A model generated the notes under the pieces. It searched no databases. It worked only from the letters and a program-made list of their open reading frames with translations, and had not been told where the DNA came from. DNA of 64,000 nt, from NCBI GenBank assembly GCA_963792415.1, contig CAWBVY010000006.1, positions 512,001 to 576,000 of the forward strand. Reading direction: 5' to 3'. Position numbers and translations under genes: made by a program. This document shows positions 23,892 to 29,701 of the stretch, piece after piece. This DNA comes from Candidatus Deferrimicrobiaceae bacterium. Its GTDB lineage: Bacteria > Desulfobacterota > Deferrimicrobia > Deferrimicrobiales > Deferrimicrobiaceae. Each line of letters starts with the position of its first letter. The first letter of the stretch is position 1.

Positions 23892-25802
23892 TCAGCGGGC
23901 CCTGTTGCCCTGGCCCTGCTCCAGCTGCTTAAGGCGGCCGCGCAGGTACGGATCGTTCACCTCCTCCAACCCCATGCGCAGGCTTTCAATCGCCCCCTTG
24001 CGATCCCCCATCATCAGGTACATGTTGGCCATCGTCTGGTAGGCGACGACCGGGGAGACACCGAGAAAGGTGTAATGATAGGCCTCCCGGATGATGTGCC
24101 TCGGCAGGATCCCCTTCGGGATCTCATGGGCCTTGACGTACCCTCGCAGTTCCGGAGTGTTGCGGACGAAGATGACGAACAGGCCGTCGGAGAAGACCAG
24201 CGACCAGTTCGGGTCGTTGGCGAGAAGGGGCACGATGGGGAGGATCATCCCCGAGGAGTCCATCGTCTTCAGCACCATGTACGTGATCCCGTACTTGTCG
24301 ATGACCCCCTCCCACCCGGGCATCCCCCCGGTGACCGACTGGTGCTCCATGAACACCTGCTGGTTGTACGTCCGGCCGTCGAGAAAGGTAAGGGCGCCAG
24401 GGTAGAGCTGCCAGTCGAGGAACCCGCCGATGTCGAAGAAGTTGAACATCTTTCCCGGGACGGGATTCCTCCGAAGGAATTCCGCCGCCTTGAAGGAGAA
24501 CTTGTGCTCCGTGATTCCCACGCCGTACTCCAACTGGGAGAAGGAGAACGCGAGCGTTGTTCCGCCGAAGGCGACGAGGGCGAGGACGACGACGCCGATG
24601 AGGATCGCGTGGACCGCTGCGAAGCGCGGACGGGGATCGGGTCGAACGGCGACCGCCGCCGGTTGAGGGCGCTTCTTCCCCTTTTTCTGCCGTTTCTCTT
24701 CCGGCGCCTCCGCTTTGGGTGTCACCTTGGCGGAAAACCATCCCGCCGCCTCCGACAGGAATCCGGTCAGGTGAAGCGATACCCCGGGAGAGAGGAAGAG
24801 TCCCATCATCGACACGGCCCGCGCCGAACCCCACGCCCCCTTGAATGCGATGGCGAACAGGAAGAGGTCGAGAAGGTAGACACGGCGCCCCGCCATTCCC
24901 AGGCAGAGGGACACCGCGGCGAAGACGACCGCAGCCTTGAAGTATATGTAGAATCCGGTCCCCTTCACCGGGGTCAGCTCCGAGATCGACATCAAGATGT
25001 TATTGGTGTTCCCTCCCGCTCCCCGGGAGATCATGTGGAGCGGCGCCAGCAGCCAGCCGTAGCCGTGCGGGTTCAGGCCGGAGAGGACGAGACCCGCGAC
25101 GCCCGTAACCAGGGGGGGGAGGATCCACGTCCGAAGCCTCGCCCACTGGAACTCCTTCTTCCAGGCCGCCCGGACGAGGGCGTCGGCGAAAAACGCGCCG
25201 TAGAGGCCGAACGCCATCAGGTAGGTCGGGTGACTGTTGGCCCACACGAGGATCATCGGGGGGAAAAGGTAGATCAGTTTTTTGCGGCTCCCGAAGTAAT
25301 ACTCGCTCAGGAGGAAGATCGTCATGGCGGTGAACAGGTACGTGAAGATCTCCGGCCGTGGCTGGATTCGGATGCGGAGGAACCCCGAGAACGCGAAGAT
25401 GGCAAGGACCGCGAGGAGGGGGTGCGCCCCGCGAAGCACCATGGCCCGGTAAAGGAAGAGGAAGATCCCGAAGACGACCGCCCAGACGAGGAACGAGGCC
25501 CCGTACTCCCCTGTCGCGGCGAACACCAGGTACAGAACCGCCTGGAACCCCCACTCGCCGCCGCTCCCGTTCTCCATCCCGAGGGACGGGTAGTTCCAAT
25601 GCTCGATCGACGGGATCTCTTGCTGCTTGACGATGAACCTTCCCAACGCGATGTGCGTCCCGAAGTCGCTCGTGAAGATCTTCGTGAGCATCGGCAGCGT
25701 GATGAGGAAGAGAAGGGTGAAGGCGACGATGTTCAGTTCCTTCGGGGTGAGGTCCCACCAGCGGCGTGGCGCACCGCCGGCTTCGAGCACCGGTTCCGCC
25801 AT
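23892..25802 (-). CDS. Polytopic membrane protein, possible GT-C-fold glycosyltransferase with C-terminal TPR-like helix
   Basis: About 12 hydrophobic segments; DFGTHIALGR, RPEIF, WANSH, NP-G and FLDGR motifs. Confidence 0.6.
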   Translation of the reverse strand: MAEPVLEAGGAPRRWWDLTPKELNIVAFTLLFLITLPMLTKIFTSDFGTHIALGRFIVKQQEIPSIEHWNYPSLGMENGSGGEWGFQAVLYLVFAATGEYGASFLVWAVVFGIFLFLYRAMVLRGAHPLLAVLAIFAFSGFLRIRIQPRPEIFTYLFTAMTIFLLSEYYFGSRKKLIYLFPPMILVWANSHPTYLMAFGLYGAFFADALVRAAWKKEFQWARLRTWILPPLVTGVAGLVLSGLNPHGYGWLLAPLHMISRGAGGNTNNILMSISELTPVKGTGFYIYFKAAVVFAAVSLCLGMAGRRVYLLDLFLFAIAFKGAWGSARAVSMMGLFLSPGVSLHLTGFLSEAAGWFSAKVTPKAEAPEEKRQKKGKKRPQPAAVAVRPDPRPRFAAVHAILIGVVVLALVAFGGTTLAFSFSQLEYGVGITEHKFSFKAAEFLRRNPVPGKMFNFFDIGGFLDWQLYPGALTFLDGRTYNQQVFMEHQSVTGGMPGWEGVIDKYGITYMVLKTMDSSGMILPIVPLLANDPNWSLVFSDGLFVIFVRNTPELRGYVKAHEIPKGILPRHIIREAYHYTFLGVSPVVAYQTMANMYLMMGDRKGAIESLRMGLEEVNDPYLRGRLKQLEQGQGNRAR

Positions 25803-25828: not shown

Positions 25829-26791
25829 TCATCTCCGGATACCTCGCTGGGATTTTCTTCCGGGGGAATGCTTCCGGGCGCTACGCCTTCCGACGGCGGC
25901 TCGCGAACATGAAGATATCATAGGGTCGACGTCAGTGGGCGGGCGCCCCCGTGGCGCTGCCGGCAACGGGGCCGGGAGGGCGGCATTGCCGAACGGCCGC
26001 CGGTGAAACACCGTGGTGAGCTTGAGGCTCGGGCACCGGGTGCAGTCGAGGCAGCGCAGGCAGTCCGGGTCGGTCGGGTTCCGGTCGGGACGGATGTCGA
26101 CCGGGCAGAGATCCTGACACTTCCCGCACCGCGTGCAGGTGTCGGGATCCCAGGCGAGCTGCAGGAAGCTCGACTTGTTGAACAGGGAGAAGATCGCACC
26201 GAGGGGGCAGATCGCCCGGCAGAAGGGGCGTTTTACCATCGTCGACGTCGTGACGAAGAAGAGCACGATCGCGATCTTGACCCAGAACAGCGACCGGACC
26301 ATCGAGCGGATGCCGGCGTTCATCGTGACCCACGGAAGCCCGCCCATCAGCGTTCCCACGGGACACAGCTTCGAGAACCAGTTCTCGTGGGTGAGATACG
26401 GGATGACGAACACCAGCCCGGCCAGGACGGCATACCGCAGATACCGCGTCCAGTGCGGCAGGGACGCCTTCCACCCCCGGAACTTGTACAGGAGATCCTG
26501 TAGGGCGCCGAAGGGGCACAGGGTCCCGCACGTCATCCGCCCCACGGACGCGCCGACGACCGAAAGGGTCCCGACCGCGTACCAGGAGACGTTCCCGCCC
26601 GCCGCGAAATGCTGCAGCGTGCCGATGGGACAGGAGAGCAGCGCGGAGGGGCAGGCGTAGCAGTTCAGCAACGGGGTGCAGACGCTCTTCATCGGCCCCT
26701 GGTAGAGCGACGTCGACAGGAACCCGGGAAGCCAGGCGTTGGGAAGGACGGCCCCCAACCCCTGGAAGATCCGTCGTTTCAGATATCTCAC
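25829..26791 (-). CDS. Membrane 4Fe-4S binding protein (NapH/FixG-like)
   Basis: CTPLLNCYACP..CPIG, GRMTCGTLCPFG, RPFCRAICPLG, CTRCGKCQDLCP, CLRCLDC. Confidence 0.88.
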   Translation of the reverse strand: MRYLKRRIFQGLGAVLPNAWLPGFLSTSLYQGPMKSVCTPLLNCYACPSALLSCPIGTLQHFAAGGNVSWYAVGTLSVVGASVGRMTCGTLCPFGALQDLLYKFRGWKASLPHWTRYLRYAVLAGLVFVIPYLTHENWFSKLCPVGTLMGGLPWVTMNAGIRSMVRSLFWVKIAIVLFFVTTSTMVKRPFCRAICPLGAIFSLFNKSSFLQLAWDPDTCTRCGKCQDLCPVDIRPDRNPTDPDCLRCLDCTRCPSLKLTTVFHRRPFGNAALPAPLPAAPRGRPPTDVDPMISSCSRAAVGRRSARKHSPGRKSQRGIRR

Positions 26792-26811
26792 GGGATCACC
26801 CGATCCCGATG
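26789..26811 (-). promoter_or_regulatory. Putative bacterial SECIS element
   Basis: CA[U]CGGGAUC-GGGU-GAUCCCG-UG: perfect 7-bp stem, bulged U, G-initiated loop starting 18 nt after the UGA. Confidence 0.7.
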
Positions 26812-26936
26812 CACGACAGTCAAAGCAGCGCGCCGTTGATCAGCACCTCCGCGATCTCCTTCCGGAAGATGCCGAGCATAAGAGCCGAGACGGCCAGCAC
26901 GGCCGTGACCAGAAAGGCGACCGGGCGTCCCTTCAT
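26796..26936 (-). CDS. 46-aa membrane microprotein with U-x-x-C motif (CD1871A-like family), probable selenoprotein
   Basis: MKGRPVAFLVTAVLAVSALMLGIFRKEIAEVLINGALL-[TGA]-LSCIGIG*. TGA at 26820-26822 occupies the first Cys position of the CxxCIGIG end. SECIS-like hairpin downstream; G-rich RBS upstream. Confidence 0.8.
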
Positions 26937-26955
26937 GCCCCCCCCGAACCCGGGA

Positions 26956-27795
26956 TCAGCCTCCGCCGTAGGAGTGCAGGCCGGAGAGAAGGAGGTTGAC
27001 GCCGAGGTAGCACATGATCGTCGCCAGGAACCCGACGATGGAGAGGATGGCGGCGCGCTTGCCGTGCCACCCGCGGGTTACCCGCGCGTGGAGGAACGCC
27101 GCGTAGATCAGCCAGATGATCAGGGACCAGGTTTCCTTCGGGTCCCACGACCAGTAGGTCCCCCAGGCGTAGTTCGCCCAGGCCGCGCCGGTGATGATCC
27201 CTACGGTGAGGAACGGGAATCCCCAGATGATCGACCGGTAGACCAGTTCGTCGAGCATCTTGCACGCCGGCAGAAGGCCCACGACCCCTTCGGAGATCTT
27301 CGCATTTTCCTGCCGGGCCTTCAGCAGGTACATCACGGCCACCCCGGCGGAGACGGCGAACGCCGCGTACCCGACGAAGCAGGTGATGACGTGGGCGTGG
27401 AGCCAGTACGACTGGAGGGCGGGCACCAGCGGCTGGATGCTGCTGTCGTTATAGACGGCGAAGACCATCGTGAGGAAGGCGATCGGCATCACGAAGCCGC
27501 CGAGGGTCCGGTTCCGGTACTTCCTCTCCACGACCAGGTAGAAGAGGTTCACCGACCAGGCGAAGAAGACGAGCGACTCGTAAAGATTCGTGACGGGGAT
27601 GCGACCGATCCCCATCTGGTACGACTCGTACCAGCGCACCCCGAGCGCCGCGGTGGATACAACCGCCCCGAGGAGGCAGACCCAGGTGCCCATGACGCCG
27701 AGCTTCTCGTTTTTCGCGTAGAGGGCGCCGAGGTACATGGCGGACGCCACACCGAACAGGACCGTGGTGAGATTGAACAGGATGACGTTGCTCAT
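26956..27795 (-). CDS. ccsB: Cytochrome c biogenesis protein CcsB/ResC (System II)
   Basis: LVPALQSYWLHAH, WANYAWGTYWSWDPKETW, GLHSY. Confidence 0.95.
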   Translation of the reverse strand: MSNVILFNLTTVLFGVASAMYLGALYAKNEKLGVMGTWVCLLGAVVSTAALGVRWYESYQMGIGRIPVTNLYESLVFFAWSVNLFYLVVERKYRNRTLGGFVMPIAFLTMVFAVYNDSSIQPLVPALQSYWLHAHVITCFVGYAAFAVSAGVAVMYLLKARQENAKISEGVVGLLPACKMLDELVYRSIIWGFPFLTVGIITGAAWANYAWGTYWSWDPKETWSLIIWLIYAAFLHARVTRGWHGKRAAILSIVGFLATIMCYLGVNLLLSGLHSYGGG

Positions 27796-27832: not shown

Positions 27833-29197
27833 TCATTGGCCTGTCGCCTTCACGCCGGTCTGTAGTTTCTCGAATCTCTTCTCGAAGGCAAGCCGGTTGC
27901 GGCTGGCGGACCCCGCGAGGACGACCTCGACACGGCCGTCGGTCCCCTGCGCGAGGCGGACCCAGACGCGCTGGTGCGAGAGGAAGAACGCCATGATCAG
28001 CCCGATCACCATCAGGGCGCACCCCAGCCAGACGATGTTCACCCCGGGGTCCTTCGCGACCTGGAGCCCGGTGAACATCTTCGAACTTAAGCCCCGGAAG
28101 GAGAATACCAGGGAGTCGGCGCGTTGCCGGTCGAGGTCGGGTCGGCGCTGGACGAGCCAGAACGAGGCGGCCGGCTGCCCGGGCTTCTCGACGACCACCT
28201 GGAGGGCCGGACCGTTTCCCTGGAAGTTCTGATTGTAGTTCACCCCGGTCACGATCCCGTAGCCGTCGATCGGAACCGGCTCGTTGGCCGCGAGGGAGAG
28301 CATGTTCACCGGGGTCCCGTCCTTGCGGGCCACCGCCACCTGGGCCTTCGCGCCGCCCCCCGCCTGCCCGTAGCTCGACTGGTAGAACCAGATCCCCTTG
28401 TACTGCAGCGGGTCGTTCACCACGATCGTCTTCCGGACCACTTCCCGCCCCCCGTCGAGGACGCTGAGGTCGGATTTGTACGCCTTGGGCTGGCCGCTCG
28501 GGTACGTCTCGACGCTGAAGGAGTTGCACCGAAGCGTGAATCCGAGGTCCTGAATCAGGGTCCCCCCCCGGACGGGGACCTGCGTGATCGCGTCCCCCTC
28601 GGGGATGTTCACGTACCCCTTGAAACCGGCGACGTTGCCGACGATCGCCCCGATGAAGATGATGATGATGGAGAGGTGGGTCACATAGACGCCGAACCGG
28701 GAGGCCACACCGGTCTCGGCGTACAGGTGCACCTCGCCGCCTTCCTCGGTGACTTTCGGCTTCGCGAAGGCGCCTGAGAGCGTCTCCGCGTATTTCCCTG
28801 TCCACTCCGAAACGGTCCCCTTCTTCTTCCACCGGTCCGAGAGCGACAGCGATTTTTCGAGGCTCCCGTCGAGCTTCGTCCGCGGGTTCCGCACGACCTT
28901 GAGCATCTTCGGGAAACGGTCGATGGTGCAGCAGGTCAGGTTCACGGTGAACAGGACGAGAATCAGCAGGAACCACTTGGAGTGGTACATATCGAACAGG
29001 TTGATCCGGTCCATGAGGGCGAACGCCCAGTCCTCGTAGATCTGGTGGTACTTCTCGGGGGGCTGGTTCTGCTCGATGATCGTGCCGAGGATCGACGTGG
29101 ACGCAAGTACGATCAGGGTGAAGATCGCAAGCTTGACGGAGATAAAGAAGTCCCACACCCGATCCATCGGGGATGGAGTGCGTTTCTCATCAGCCAT
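27833..29197 (-). CDS. resB: Cytochrome c biogenesis protein ResB/Ccs1
   Basis: SVKLAIFTL, GTIIEQ, YHSKWF, THLSII, VNDPL, TGLQVAKDPG. Confidence 0.93.
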   Translation of the reverse strand: MADEKRTPSPMDRVWDFFISVKLAIFTLIVLASTSILGTIIEQNQPPEKYHQIYEDWAFALMDRINLFDMYHSKWFLLILVLFTVNLTCCTIDRFPKMLKVVRNPRTKLDGSLEKSLSLSDRWKKKGTVSEWTGKYAETLSGAFAKPKVTEEGGEVHLYAETGVASRFGVYVTHLSIIIIFIGAIVGNVAGFKGYVNIPEGDAITQVPVRGGTLIQDLGFTLRCNSFSVETYPSGQPKAYKSDLSVLDGGREVVRKTIVVNDPLQYKGIWFYQSSYGQAGGGAKAQVAVARKDGTPVNMLSLAANEPVPIDGYGIVTGVNYNQNFQGNGPALQVVVEKPGQPAASFWLVQRRPDLDRQRADSLVFSFRGLSSKMFTGLQVAKDPGVNIVWLGCALMVIGLIMAFFLSHQRVWVRLAQGTDGRVEVVLAGSASRNRLAFEKRFEKLQTGVKATGQ

Positions 29198-29298
29198 GCG
29201 GGCCACCCTCAATTATTCGGAATAAATACTATATACTAGACTGATATCCTGACGTCAAACGGATACGCCATCCGCACCGAATCCGCACCGAAGAATAA

Positions 29299-29353: not shown

Positions 29354-29701
29354 CTACTTCTTGTGGCAGCCGTCACACTTGGTGGGGCCTTTGGCCATCT
29401 TCTGGTGGCACCCCTTGCACTTCGTGTGCATGGAGTCCTTCAAAGAGACTGCGTCGCCCTTCTTCTCGGCCTTGTGGCAGGCGAAGCACGACTGCTCCTT
29501 GCCCGCTGCGTCCTTGTGGTGGCACTCCGCGCACTTGATGCCCAGCTTTTCCGCGTGCGCCTTGTGGGGAAATACCACCGGCGACTTGGACTTCTGGACG
29601 TCCTTGATCGTAGTGCTGTCAGGAGCATCCGCCGCGACGATCATGCTGGCCGAAAACACCGTCATCATCACGACTGCCATCAACATCGCGAATTTCTTCA
29701 T
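29354..29701 (-). CDS. Periplasmic tetraheme cytochrome c3
   Basis: Signal peptide, VVFPHKAH, four CxxCH motifs (CAECH, CFACH, CKGCH, CDGCH). Confidence 0.92.
   Translation of the reverse strand: MKKFAMLMAVVMMTVFSASMIVAADAPDSTTIKDVQKSKSPVVFPHKAHAEKLGIKCAECHHKDAAGKEQSCFACHKAEKKGDAVSLKDSMHTKCKGCHQKMAKGPTKCDGCHKK

Follow-up and report, generated by a model that had tools for sequence, protein, structure and literature searches.

Proteins of the NCBIfam family NF040920, designated 'CD1871A family CXXC motif-containing protein', are approximately 45 residues in length and consist of an N-terminal hydrophobic helix followed by a C-terminal CxxC-[IVL]-G-[IVL]-G motif. The name given to this family in NCBIfam release 20.0 makes no mention of selenocysteine (Sec), and no mention of the CD1871A family was found in the papers searched. 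A gene encoding a protein of this layout is found on the minus strand of a 64,000-nucleotide stretch of DNA, hereafter the window, from a Candidatus Deferrimicrobiaceae bacterium of the Desulfobacterota (GenBank assembly GCA_963792415.1, contig CAWBVY010000006.1, positions 512,001 to 576,000; coordinates below are those of the window). It differs from the described family in carrying Sec at the position of the first cysteine, if the in-frame TGA codon found there is decoded as proposed below. The whole locus is very probably best explained as a gene for a 46-residue single-pass membrane selenoprotein, of which the decoding is well supported and the function is one that we infer.

Bacterial selenoproteins with UxxC or CxxU motifs are listed in Table 1 of PMC13188914. 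The window protein resembles them in having a UGA aligned with a cysteine of its homologues, a hairpin of the bacterial selenocysteine insertion sequence (bSECIS) type and a dependence on selABCD, but differs in being very small, at 46 residues, with its Sec 8 residues from the end. One of the listed proteins, TsoA (NF045695, LULAXC motif), which was compared through its row in that table alone, has an L-U-L-A-x-C sequence similar to the L-U-L-S-C of the window protein, and one relative of the latter has L-U-L-A-C, although the spacing is off by one residue; an NCBIfam scan of the read-through protein at E <= 1 gave no match to NF045695, returning only NF040920. The 119 families and subfamilies of the table include neither the accession nor the name of NF040920, nor any comparable membrane microprotein. 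Likewise the available part of the Haft & Gwadz preprint makes no mention of the family, and nor does the main text of BSepDB, the family list of which sits in a supplement. The protein can be described as belonging to an unlisted selenoprotein family in the sense of being absent from the inventories named here, with the BSepDB supplement lying outside the comparison.

The gene that follows encodes a polyferredoxin similar to the NapH, NosR, RdhC and CcoG proteins, with which it shares a four-helix membrane module, CX3CP-type cysteine motifs and two [4Fe-4S] motifs, as set out in the available parts of PMC5928378 and PMC7558416. It differs from the NapH type in possessing an extra invariant N-terminal cysteine motif and in being preceded by a microprotein, none being described for NapH, NosR or CcoG in those parts of the two papers. 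No function is assigned in the available text of PMC5928378 to the cysteine motifs of the NapH/NosR/RdhC membrane module, for which both a disulfide and an Fe-S centre are discussed. CcoG, a NapH-family protein, carries two [4Fe-4S] clusters as well as Cu sites and serves oxidase assembly by reducing Cu(II); smaller homologues are without a known role according to the available part of PMC7558416.

An in-frame TGA in a microprotein gene

The minus-strand frame opens with an ATG at 26936-26934 and reads MKGRPVAFLVTAVLAVSALMLGIFRKEIAEVLINGALL up to the first TGA, such that 38 sense codons, the last of them encoding NGALL, precede the in-frame TGA at 26822-26820 (residue 39). The codons CTG TCG TGC ATC GGG ATC GGG, encoding LSCIGIG, then lead to a stop TGA at 26798-26796; translation of the minus strand thus confirms the TGA-LSCIGIG-stop reading put forward in a first-pass annotation of the window. 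The microprotein of 46 residues (coding sequence 26799-26936, minus strand) starts with an N-terminal K/R flank, continues through one transmembrane helix and an amphipathic stretch, and ends in the C-terminal U-L-S-C-I-G-I-G. Residues beyond the second TGA are not conserved among relatives, as befits the true stop; of the 45 Sec forms, 40 end with TGA at this point and five with TAA. Public collections hold the Sec forms as the 38-residue truncated product, and proteins of the family are named 'hypothetical protein' or 'uncharacterized membrane protein'.

When cysteine was put in place of the TGA, the read-through product aligned with positions 2-38 of the 38 in the NF040920 profile (E 1.1e-5), a match that extends across the TGA, and 42 close homologues were found. 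Pfam contained no match for the microprotein, and among solved structures there was no relative of it, the best match (E 0.16) being to photosystem helices. A profile built from 17 relatives and searched against 1.84 billion proteins at E <= 0.001 recovered 879 cluster representatives. Among the best 150 of these, 114 end C..C.G.G and 22 have close variants of this ending; a further 13 stop just before the first cysteine, the pattern of a truncated TGA form, and one has serine in place of that cysteine. These endings, together with the full-length profile match, bear out the earlier statement that CD1871A-type proteins end in CxxCIGIG.

The TGA occupies the column of the first CxxC cysteine of the family. 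A search of 61 related genomes with the NF040920 model, in which stops were read through, found 38 matches in 34 genomes, 26 having exactly one TGA and 12 having none. In the 31 loci examined, 20 TGA and 11 TGC or TGT codons fall in a single shared column, and all continue L-S/A-C-I/V-G-x-G before a stop; a further 26 TGA matches, six from related genomes and 20 from other taxonomic families of the phylum, agree without exception. Every TGA locus examined in the window's phylum, 46 of 46 (45 of them distinct; six further TGA matches are left out of this count), therefore has the TGA aligned with the first cysteine, continues [LM]-[SAH]-C-I-G-[IVL]-G and then stops. Removal of duplicates left 45 Sec and 84 Cys forms for comparison; the scan for Cys forms across many phyla used a pattern containing cysteine, and is blind to Sec forms.

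Variation in the codons after the TGA of the Sec forms is mostly synonymous, with few amino-acid changes. Leucine is encoded by CTG, CTT, CTC or CTA, cysteine by TGC or TGT, isoleucine by ATC, ATA or ATT, and serine in six ways, by TCG, TCC, TCT and TCA and by AGC and AGT. The retention of serine across both the TCN and AGY boxes argues for selection on the peptide, and other explanations are hard to find. Both the interchange of Cys and TGA among homologues and the conservation past the TGA, on which the first-pass annotation had made its proposal depend, were hence observed, the latter in the peptide while its codons vary. In a few loci (L035/L049 and L028) the micro-ORFs (open reading frames) look disrupted at their N-termini, with stops or a TGA in the helix region, though the C-terminal part is retained; decay of the copies or errors of assembly may account for this.

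In the window itself the TGA is not an assembly error, because contigs from four sequencing runs retain it. The stretch is present in twenty public runs from 16 studies, and contigs of two DNA and two RNA-library runs span 26820-26822, all four having TGA and no other letter at these positions. A sister strain carries U-L-A-C: both RNA-library contigs differ by A>C at 26816, which gives this motif as in the relative L042, and one of them spans the end of ccsA, the micro-ORF and the partner gene.

The hairpin and the selenocysteine machinery

A SECIS-type hairpin occupies 26791-26808 on the minus strand, with a 5' arm CGGGAUC (26808-26802), a loop GGGU (26801-26798) and a 3' arm GAUCCCG (26797-26791), of which the inner six pairs are conserved. 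In this copy the gap from the UGA is 11 nt to the stem and 18 nt to the loop, the stem starting 11-12 nt past the UGA across the Sec forms. The hairpin covers the last codons of the micro-ORF, its stop codon (the U being the last base of the loop and the GA opening the 3' arm) and the first base of the partner's GTG start, which is the final G of the 3' arm; half of the element accordingly lies beyond the stop codon, outside the coding region. A loop of GGGU 18 nt after the TGA, capping a perfect CGGGAUC/GAUCCCG stem, had been reported in the first-pass annotation and is exact in the sequence. The 'bulged U' reported with it is not supported as a conserved feature: it is outside the 7-bp stem, as an unpaired U (26809) occurs only in an extended fold of the window copy and is not conserved in relatives. 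The seventh pair of the window copy is likewise unpaired in 31 of 38 distinct relatives, so that what is conserved amounts to a stem of 6 bp and a G-first loop. A lower stem seen in the 71-nt fold of the window copy was not counted as part of the element; it pairs with conserved N-terminal codons of the partner.

The SECIS of Escherichia coli fdhF is a small stem-loop near the UGA with a G-first loop and an 11-nt gap between the UGA and the upper stem. By comparison, the element of the window family has no conserved bulged U and a stem of only 6 bp, and overlaps both its own stop codon and the start of the next gene. The constraints published for bSECIS elements are a loop of 3-9 nt, a stem of 4-16 bp, a G in the first two loop positions, a distance of 16-37 nt from UGA to loop and a minimum free energy <= -7.5 kcal/mol (legend to Fig. 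2 of PMC13188914). In our own comparison with these published values, as distinct from output of bSECISearch, the window hairpin lies within all of those quoted, with a loop of 4 nt, a stem of 7 bp (6 conserved), G at loop positions 1 and 2, the 18 nt distance and a core fold energy of -10.8 kcal/mol, in keeping with the SECIS-like spacing originally claimed for it.

The hairpin was compared between Sec and Cys forms in a fixed register, consisting of six pairs with the 5' arm at bases 13-18 past the UGA and a 4-nt loop. All six pairs are present in 40 of the 45 Sec forms; two others have five of the six, a TAA stop opening the loop-closing pair, and three possess a perfect 6-bp stem that is displaced by one base and differs in sequence (GGGUUA-GGC-UAACCC), such that the hairpin is intact in 43 of 45 (40 in the fixed register and three shifted). 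By contrast, six pairs are found in 2, and five in 11, of the 84 Cys forms, with close kin of the Cys type in the same genus mostly showing one A·C mismatch in the stem. A core fold of -7.5 kcal/mol or lower is similarly found in 40 of 45 Sec forms (median -9.2) versus 1 of 84 Cys forms (median -0.6). Only the fixed-register counts and fold energies were used for this comparison, a search with free register and free loop being too permissive, as it allowed 24 of the 84 Cys forms to reach six contiguous pairs somewhere. Pairs were counted on 45 Sec sequences, of which 38 are distinct: the unpaired cells in the six inner pairs number 1, 0, 0, 1, 0 and 3, and exchanges occur at two stem positions (G-C 27, A-U 5 and G-U 5 at one; G-C 29, G-U 8 and A-U 1 at the other). 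Paired cells amount to 86.5%, against 36-58% in slid registers, and the covariation score was matched by 0 of 500 shuffles. Because the Cys forms share the downstream partner yet lack the hairpin, this element goes with the TGA and not with the gene pair.

The same comparisons bear on the suggestion that the TGA is an ordinary stop, in which case the product would have 38 residues and the conserved 3' stretch would be an RNA element, such as a hairpin acting on the polyferredoxin gene in translational coupling or regulation. Gene callers yield the 38-residue form everywhere, and the hairpin does overlap the partner's start codon, such that the loop and stop region could act as a ribosome-binding region; this is nevertheless highly improbable, as the seven codons past the TGA hold both frame and peptide while their third positions vary and serine switches codon box, the residues they encode align one-to-one with the C-terminus of the 84 Cys forms, and those forms have the same partner but, in all save two cases, no intact hairpin.

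The best independent support for Sec decoding comes from a second phylum, the Cloacimonadota (to which the genome of locus L058 belongs). The family was present in 13 of the 121 genomes searched, four of the 13 being Sec forms with one TGA, of which three read U-L-S-C-I-G-I-G-stop and one C-L-G-U-I-G-L-G-stop. A hairpin whose loop starts with G and whose stem is of unrelated sequence comes after each of the four, the CxxU form (locus L160 of genome G516, at approximately 1602 in the oriented locus) having its own. Sec thus appears to be placed at either cysteine of the pair in different lineages.

The Sec machinery, the presence of which had been left to be checked, is complete in the window genome. 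This genome, estimated as 100% complete, encodes selA (555 bits; cut-off 268), selB (324 bits; cut-off 242), selD (317 bits), itself interrupted by a single in-frame TGA, and a tRNA-SeC (anticodon tca) that scores above the cut-off. The selD gene is located outside the window (G000 contig C4:526405-527208), and the selenophosphate synthetase is here also a selenoprotein. Among the relatives, selA was found in 54 of 61 genomes, and of the 26 that carry the TGA form, 24 have it; three distant TGA-form genomes with no selA match (G232, G128 and G051) have selB above the cut-off and tRNA-Sec. One relative, G036, is 95% complete, has the Cys form and has neither selA nor tRNA-Sec above threshold, a pattern as expected if Cys replaced Sec upon loss of the trait.

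Read-through by near-cognate tRNAs occurs in bacteria, and the TGA might on this precedent be read as Trp, Cys or another standard residue, through a leaky stop or a variant code. This is scarcely credible here, given that TGA is the true stop in 40 of 45 Sec and 39 of 84 Cys forms, and so is not a general sense codon, that a complete Sec system is present and selD too uses an in-frame TGA, that a SECIS-type hairpin accompanies the TGA at the canonical distance, and that the one 95%-complete relative without selA and tRNA-Sec above threshold has the Cys form.

A number of observations weigh against Sec decoding. The read-through product reaches 25.2 bits with the NF040920 model, whose curated cut-off is 32 (15.5 bits in a six-frame search of the genome), and is therefore a relative of that family and not a member by NCBI's rule; the relative L016, with the same partner downstream, scores 37.2 bits, above the cut-off. 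The 71-nt stretch at the site folds no better than shuffled sequences (z = -0.98, with 31 of 200 shuffles equalling it), so that the window copy alone is unexceptional and the significance of the hairpin rests on the comparison with relatives. At 26600-27000 Rfam yields neither a SECIS nor any other relevant family, and its two matches, both to snoRNAs, are sub-threshold and due to chance. Kinship among the sequences also limits the statistics: a tree of the partner protein, comprising 108 rows (35 Sec and 73 Cys; 21 loci with <140 aligned residues were left out), needs only six Sec/Cys changes and contains three well-supported independent pairs, in which the hairpin changes with the TGA in 2.6 of 3 on average and never oppositely (sign test p = 0.25). 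Neither selA nor selB was found in two TGA-form metagenome-assembled genomes, G021 (80% complete) and G022 (64%). Finally, the RNA-library evidence consists of contigs, which indicate presence in an RNA library and are not proof of transcription. With these points taken into account, the reading of TGA-39 as selenocysteine is strongly supported.

The polyferredoxin partner and its neighbourhood

The partner gene (25829-26791, minus strand) encodes a NapH/MauN-like membrane polyferredoxin, with two copies of the Fer4_5 membrane module and a 2 x [4Fe-4S] domain according to NCBIfam and Pfam. Its score against the NapH/MauN model TIGR02163 is 64.9 bits, below the cut-off of 213, and as it shares the Fer4_5 module and 4Fe-4S motifs it is termed only 'NapH-like' here; among solved structures it was matched through the ferredoxin domain only. 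The start codon lies 4 nt past the microprotein stop, and in relatives is an ATG, GTG or TTG at a fixed position. The G-rich loop of the hairpin might double as the ribosome-binding site of the partner (window 26789-26798), although any coupling of Sec insertion to partner translation is speculation. A scan for promoters and terminators around the operon gave nothing above the expectation from shuffles.

The association of the two genes is widespread. The partner is directly downstream of the microprotein gene in 26 of the 31 relatives' loci. The arrangement recurs in 72 of a set of 78 loci drawn from many phyla and groups, among them the Eisenbacteria, Spirochaetota, Zixibacteria, WOR-3, Chloroflexota, Cloacimonadota, Thermodesulfobacteriota and Lachnospiraceae; of the six loci that do not show it, two end where the sequence runs out. 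An alignment of the partner contains three invariant cysteines (C44, C54 and C143) and one, C47, that is nearly so, and the loops holding these four residues probably face outward, judging from hydropathy and charge on the alignment. In the microprotein, the net charge over 126 loci is +2.0 in the N-terminal flank and -1.0 in the flank after the helix, the former being the more positive in 121 of the 126; under the positive-inside rule, this bias suggests a cytoplasmic N-terminus and an outward U/CxxC tail. A complex prediction for a natural Cys-form pair of NapH-like protein and microprotein scored 0.13 against a mark of 0.32 in a run without controls, and speaks neither for nor against binding.

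Upstream of the micro-ORF in the window, all on the minus strand, are genes for a system II cytochrome c biogenesis protein (26956-27795; TIGR03144, 300 bits), a ResB-like cytochrome c biogenesis protein (27833-29212; PF05140) and, just upstream of these ResB-ccsA genes, a small class III (c3/c7-type) multihaem cytochrome (29354-29701). Directly after the polyferredoxin gene is one for a 636-residue predicted membrane protein (23892-25802, minus strand), which has no Pfam match at E <= 0.01 and occupies the same place in many relatives' loci. In a wider survey of neighbours, 122 of 154 candidate open reading frames were run on Pfam, those within the partner or over the size limit having been dropped by eye. 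Redoxin, AhpC-TSA or thioredoxin-like neighbours were found in 15 loci, six of them distant Sec-form loci, with several fused to a CcmH-like TPR, and a DsbD_2 neighbour in one locus. In L132, L133, L135, L142 and L147, a redoxin/AhpC-TSA domain fused to a TPR matching the CcmH/CycH TPR model is encoded just upstream of the Sec form; these fusions belong to other families of the window's phylum.

A minority of Cys paralogues follow a gene of the 2-hydroxyacyl-CoA dehydratase family (PF06050) and not a polyferredoxin. For instance, a Cys-only paralogue ending …NA[AS]MLCLSCIGMG, at L019:1501-1644 on the minus strand, directly follows a 425-residue gene product of the 2-hydroxyglutaryl-CoA dehydratase D-component family (PF06050, 381 bits; L019:1641-2918, minus strand) and has no polyferredoxin after it, with similar paralogues in L018, L020 and L023. 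Four genomes, G001, G006, G008 and G028, carry both the Cys-only paralogue and the Sec form.

Possible functions of the module

In the proposed mechanism, SelB with Sec-tRNA(Sec) would bind the loop of the hairpin while UGA-39 is in the ribosomal A site, leading to the insertion of Sec; the ribosome would then unwind the hairpin and, seven codons on, meet the second UGA inside it, where it would terminate because no SECIS lies behind that codon. The product would end U-L-S-C-I-G-I-G, with Sec replacing the first cysteine of the CxxC. Its outward U/CxxC tail could act as a selenol/thiol redox partner of the NapH-like polyferredoxin. The latter would draw reductant from its Fe-S clusters on the cytoplasmic side and hand it to thiol-redox clients outside the cytoplasm, among them redoxins of the TlpA/ResA type and, in the window genome, cytochrome c maturation. 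An outward selenol/thiol relay of this kind, fed by the Fe-S clusters of the partner, is the function that we favour.

A broader proposal is that the microprotein and the NapH-type polyferredoxin may constitute an unrecognised two-component transmembrane reductase feeding the periplasmic thiol network and cytochrome c maturation, an Fe-S-driven route beside DsbD/CcdA that would be widespread in anaerobes and upgraded with Sec in several lineages; this is advanced tentatively, as one possibility that is more likely to prove wrong in some part than right in all. The likeness to DsbD and CcdA would lie in the same role of providing reductant to periplasmic redoxins and cytochrome c maturation, as the TlpA/ResA-type redoxins and ccsBA among the neighbours suggest, whereas there is no sequence relation and the electrons would arrive through Fe-S clusters and not thioredoxin. 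The module was also considered as a replacement for CcdA or DsbD in the window genome, and this was rejected, for although PF02683 was not found, one PF13386 (DsbD_2) gene is present. Several observations run counter to a role in thiol reduction: the window genome has this DsbD_2/CcdA-type gene of its own, linkage to ccsBA is limited to part of the clade (upstream in 17 of 31 relatives' loci), and many loci have unrelated neighbours, for example HU in 16 (probably unrelated).

The U/CxxC tail might alternatively be a metal ligand, with the pair forming a metal reductase or handling module like CcoG in which the microprotein receives or presents the metal. CcoG itself is a precedent in its reduction of Cu(II) (available part of PMC7558416), several CU and UxxC selenoproteins are proposed to be metal binders (PMC13188914, Table 1; available part of the Haft & Gwadz preprint) and an ArsP-type permease is found near one distant locus. 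The recurrent neighbours, however, are thiol-disulfide redoxins and cytochrome c maturation proteins rather than metal chaperones or P-type ATPases, and no CcoG model is among the partner's best 25 NCBIfam matches, making metal handling an unlikely function. It is rather improbable, too, that the two residues of the tail join the outer-loop cysteines of the polyferredoxin to complete an extracytoplasmic Fe-S (or Fe-S/Se) cluster, with the microprotein as a structural ligand subunit: C44, C47, C54 and C143 are in loops predicted to face outward, and an Fe-S centre is among the options discussed for the unassigned cysteine motifs of NapH, NosR and RdhC (available part of PMC5928378), but the presence of Sec at either position, as UxxC or CxxU, in different lineages is typical of the redox-active pairs of listed selenoprotein families.

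The locus would add a selenoprotein family missed by the inventories named above and by gene callers, the 46 residues of which place it among the smallest selenoproteins, with a SECIS that straddles its own stop codon. It also provides an example of how one UGA would be recoded when another, which terminates, lies 21 nt further on. To our knowledge, selenocysteine is used almost only at catalytic or redox-active positions. Its apparent occurrence at either cysteine of the CxxC would consequently identify the pair as the active part of a two-gene membrane module that is spread over many anaerobic phyla, offering experimenters a precise residue and a partner.

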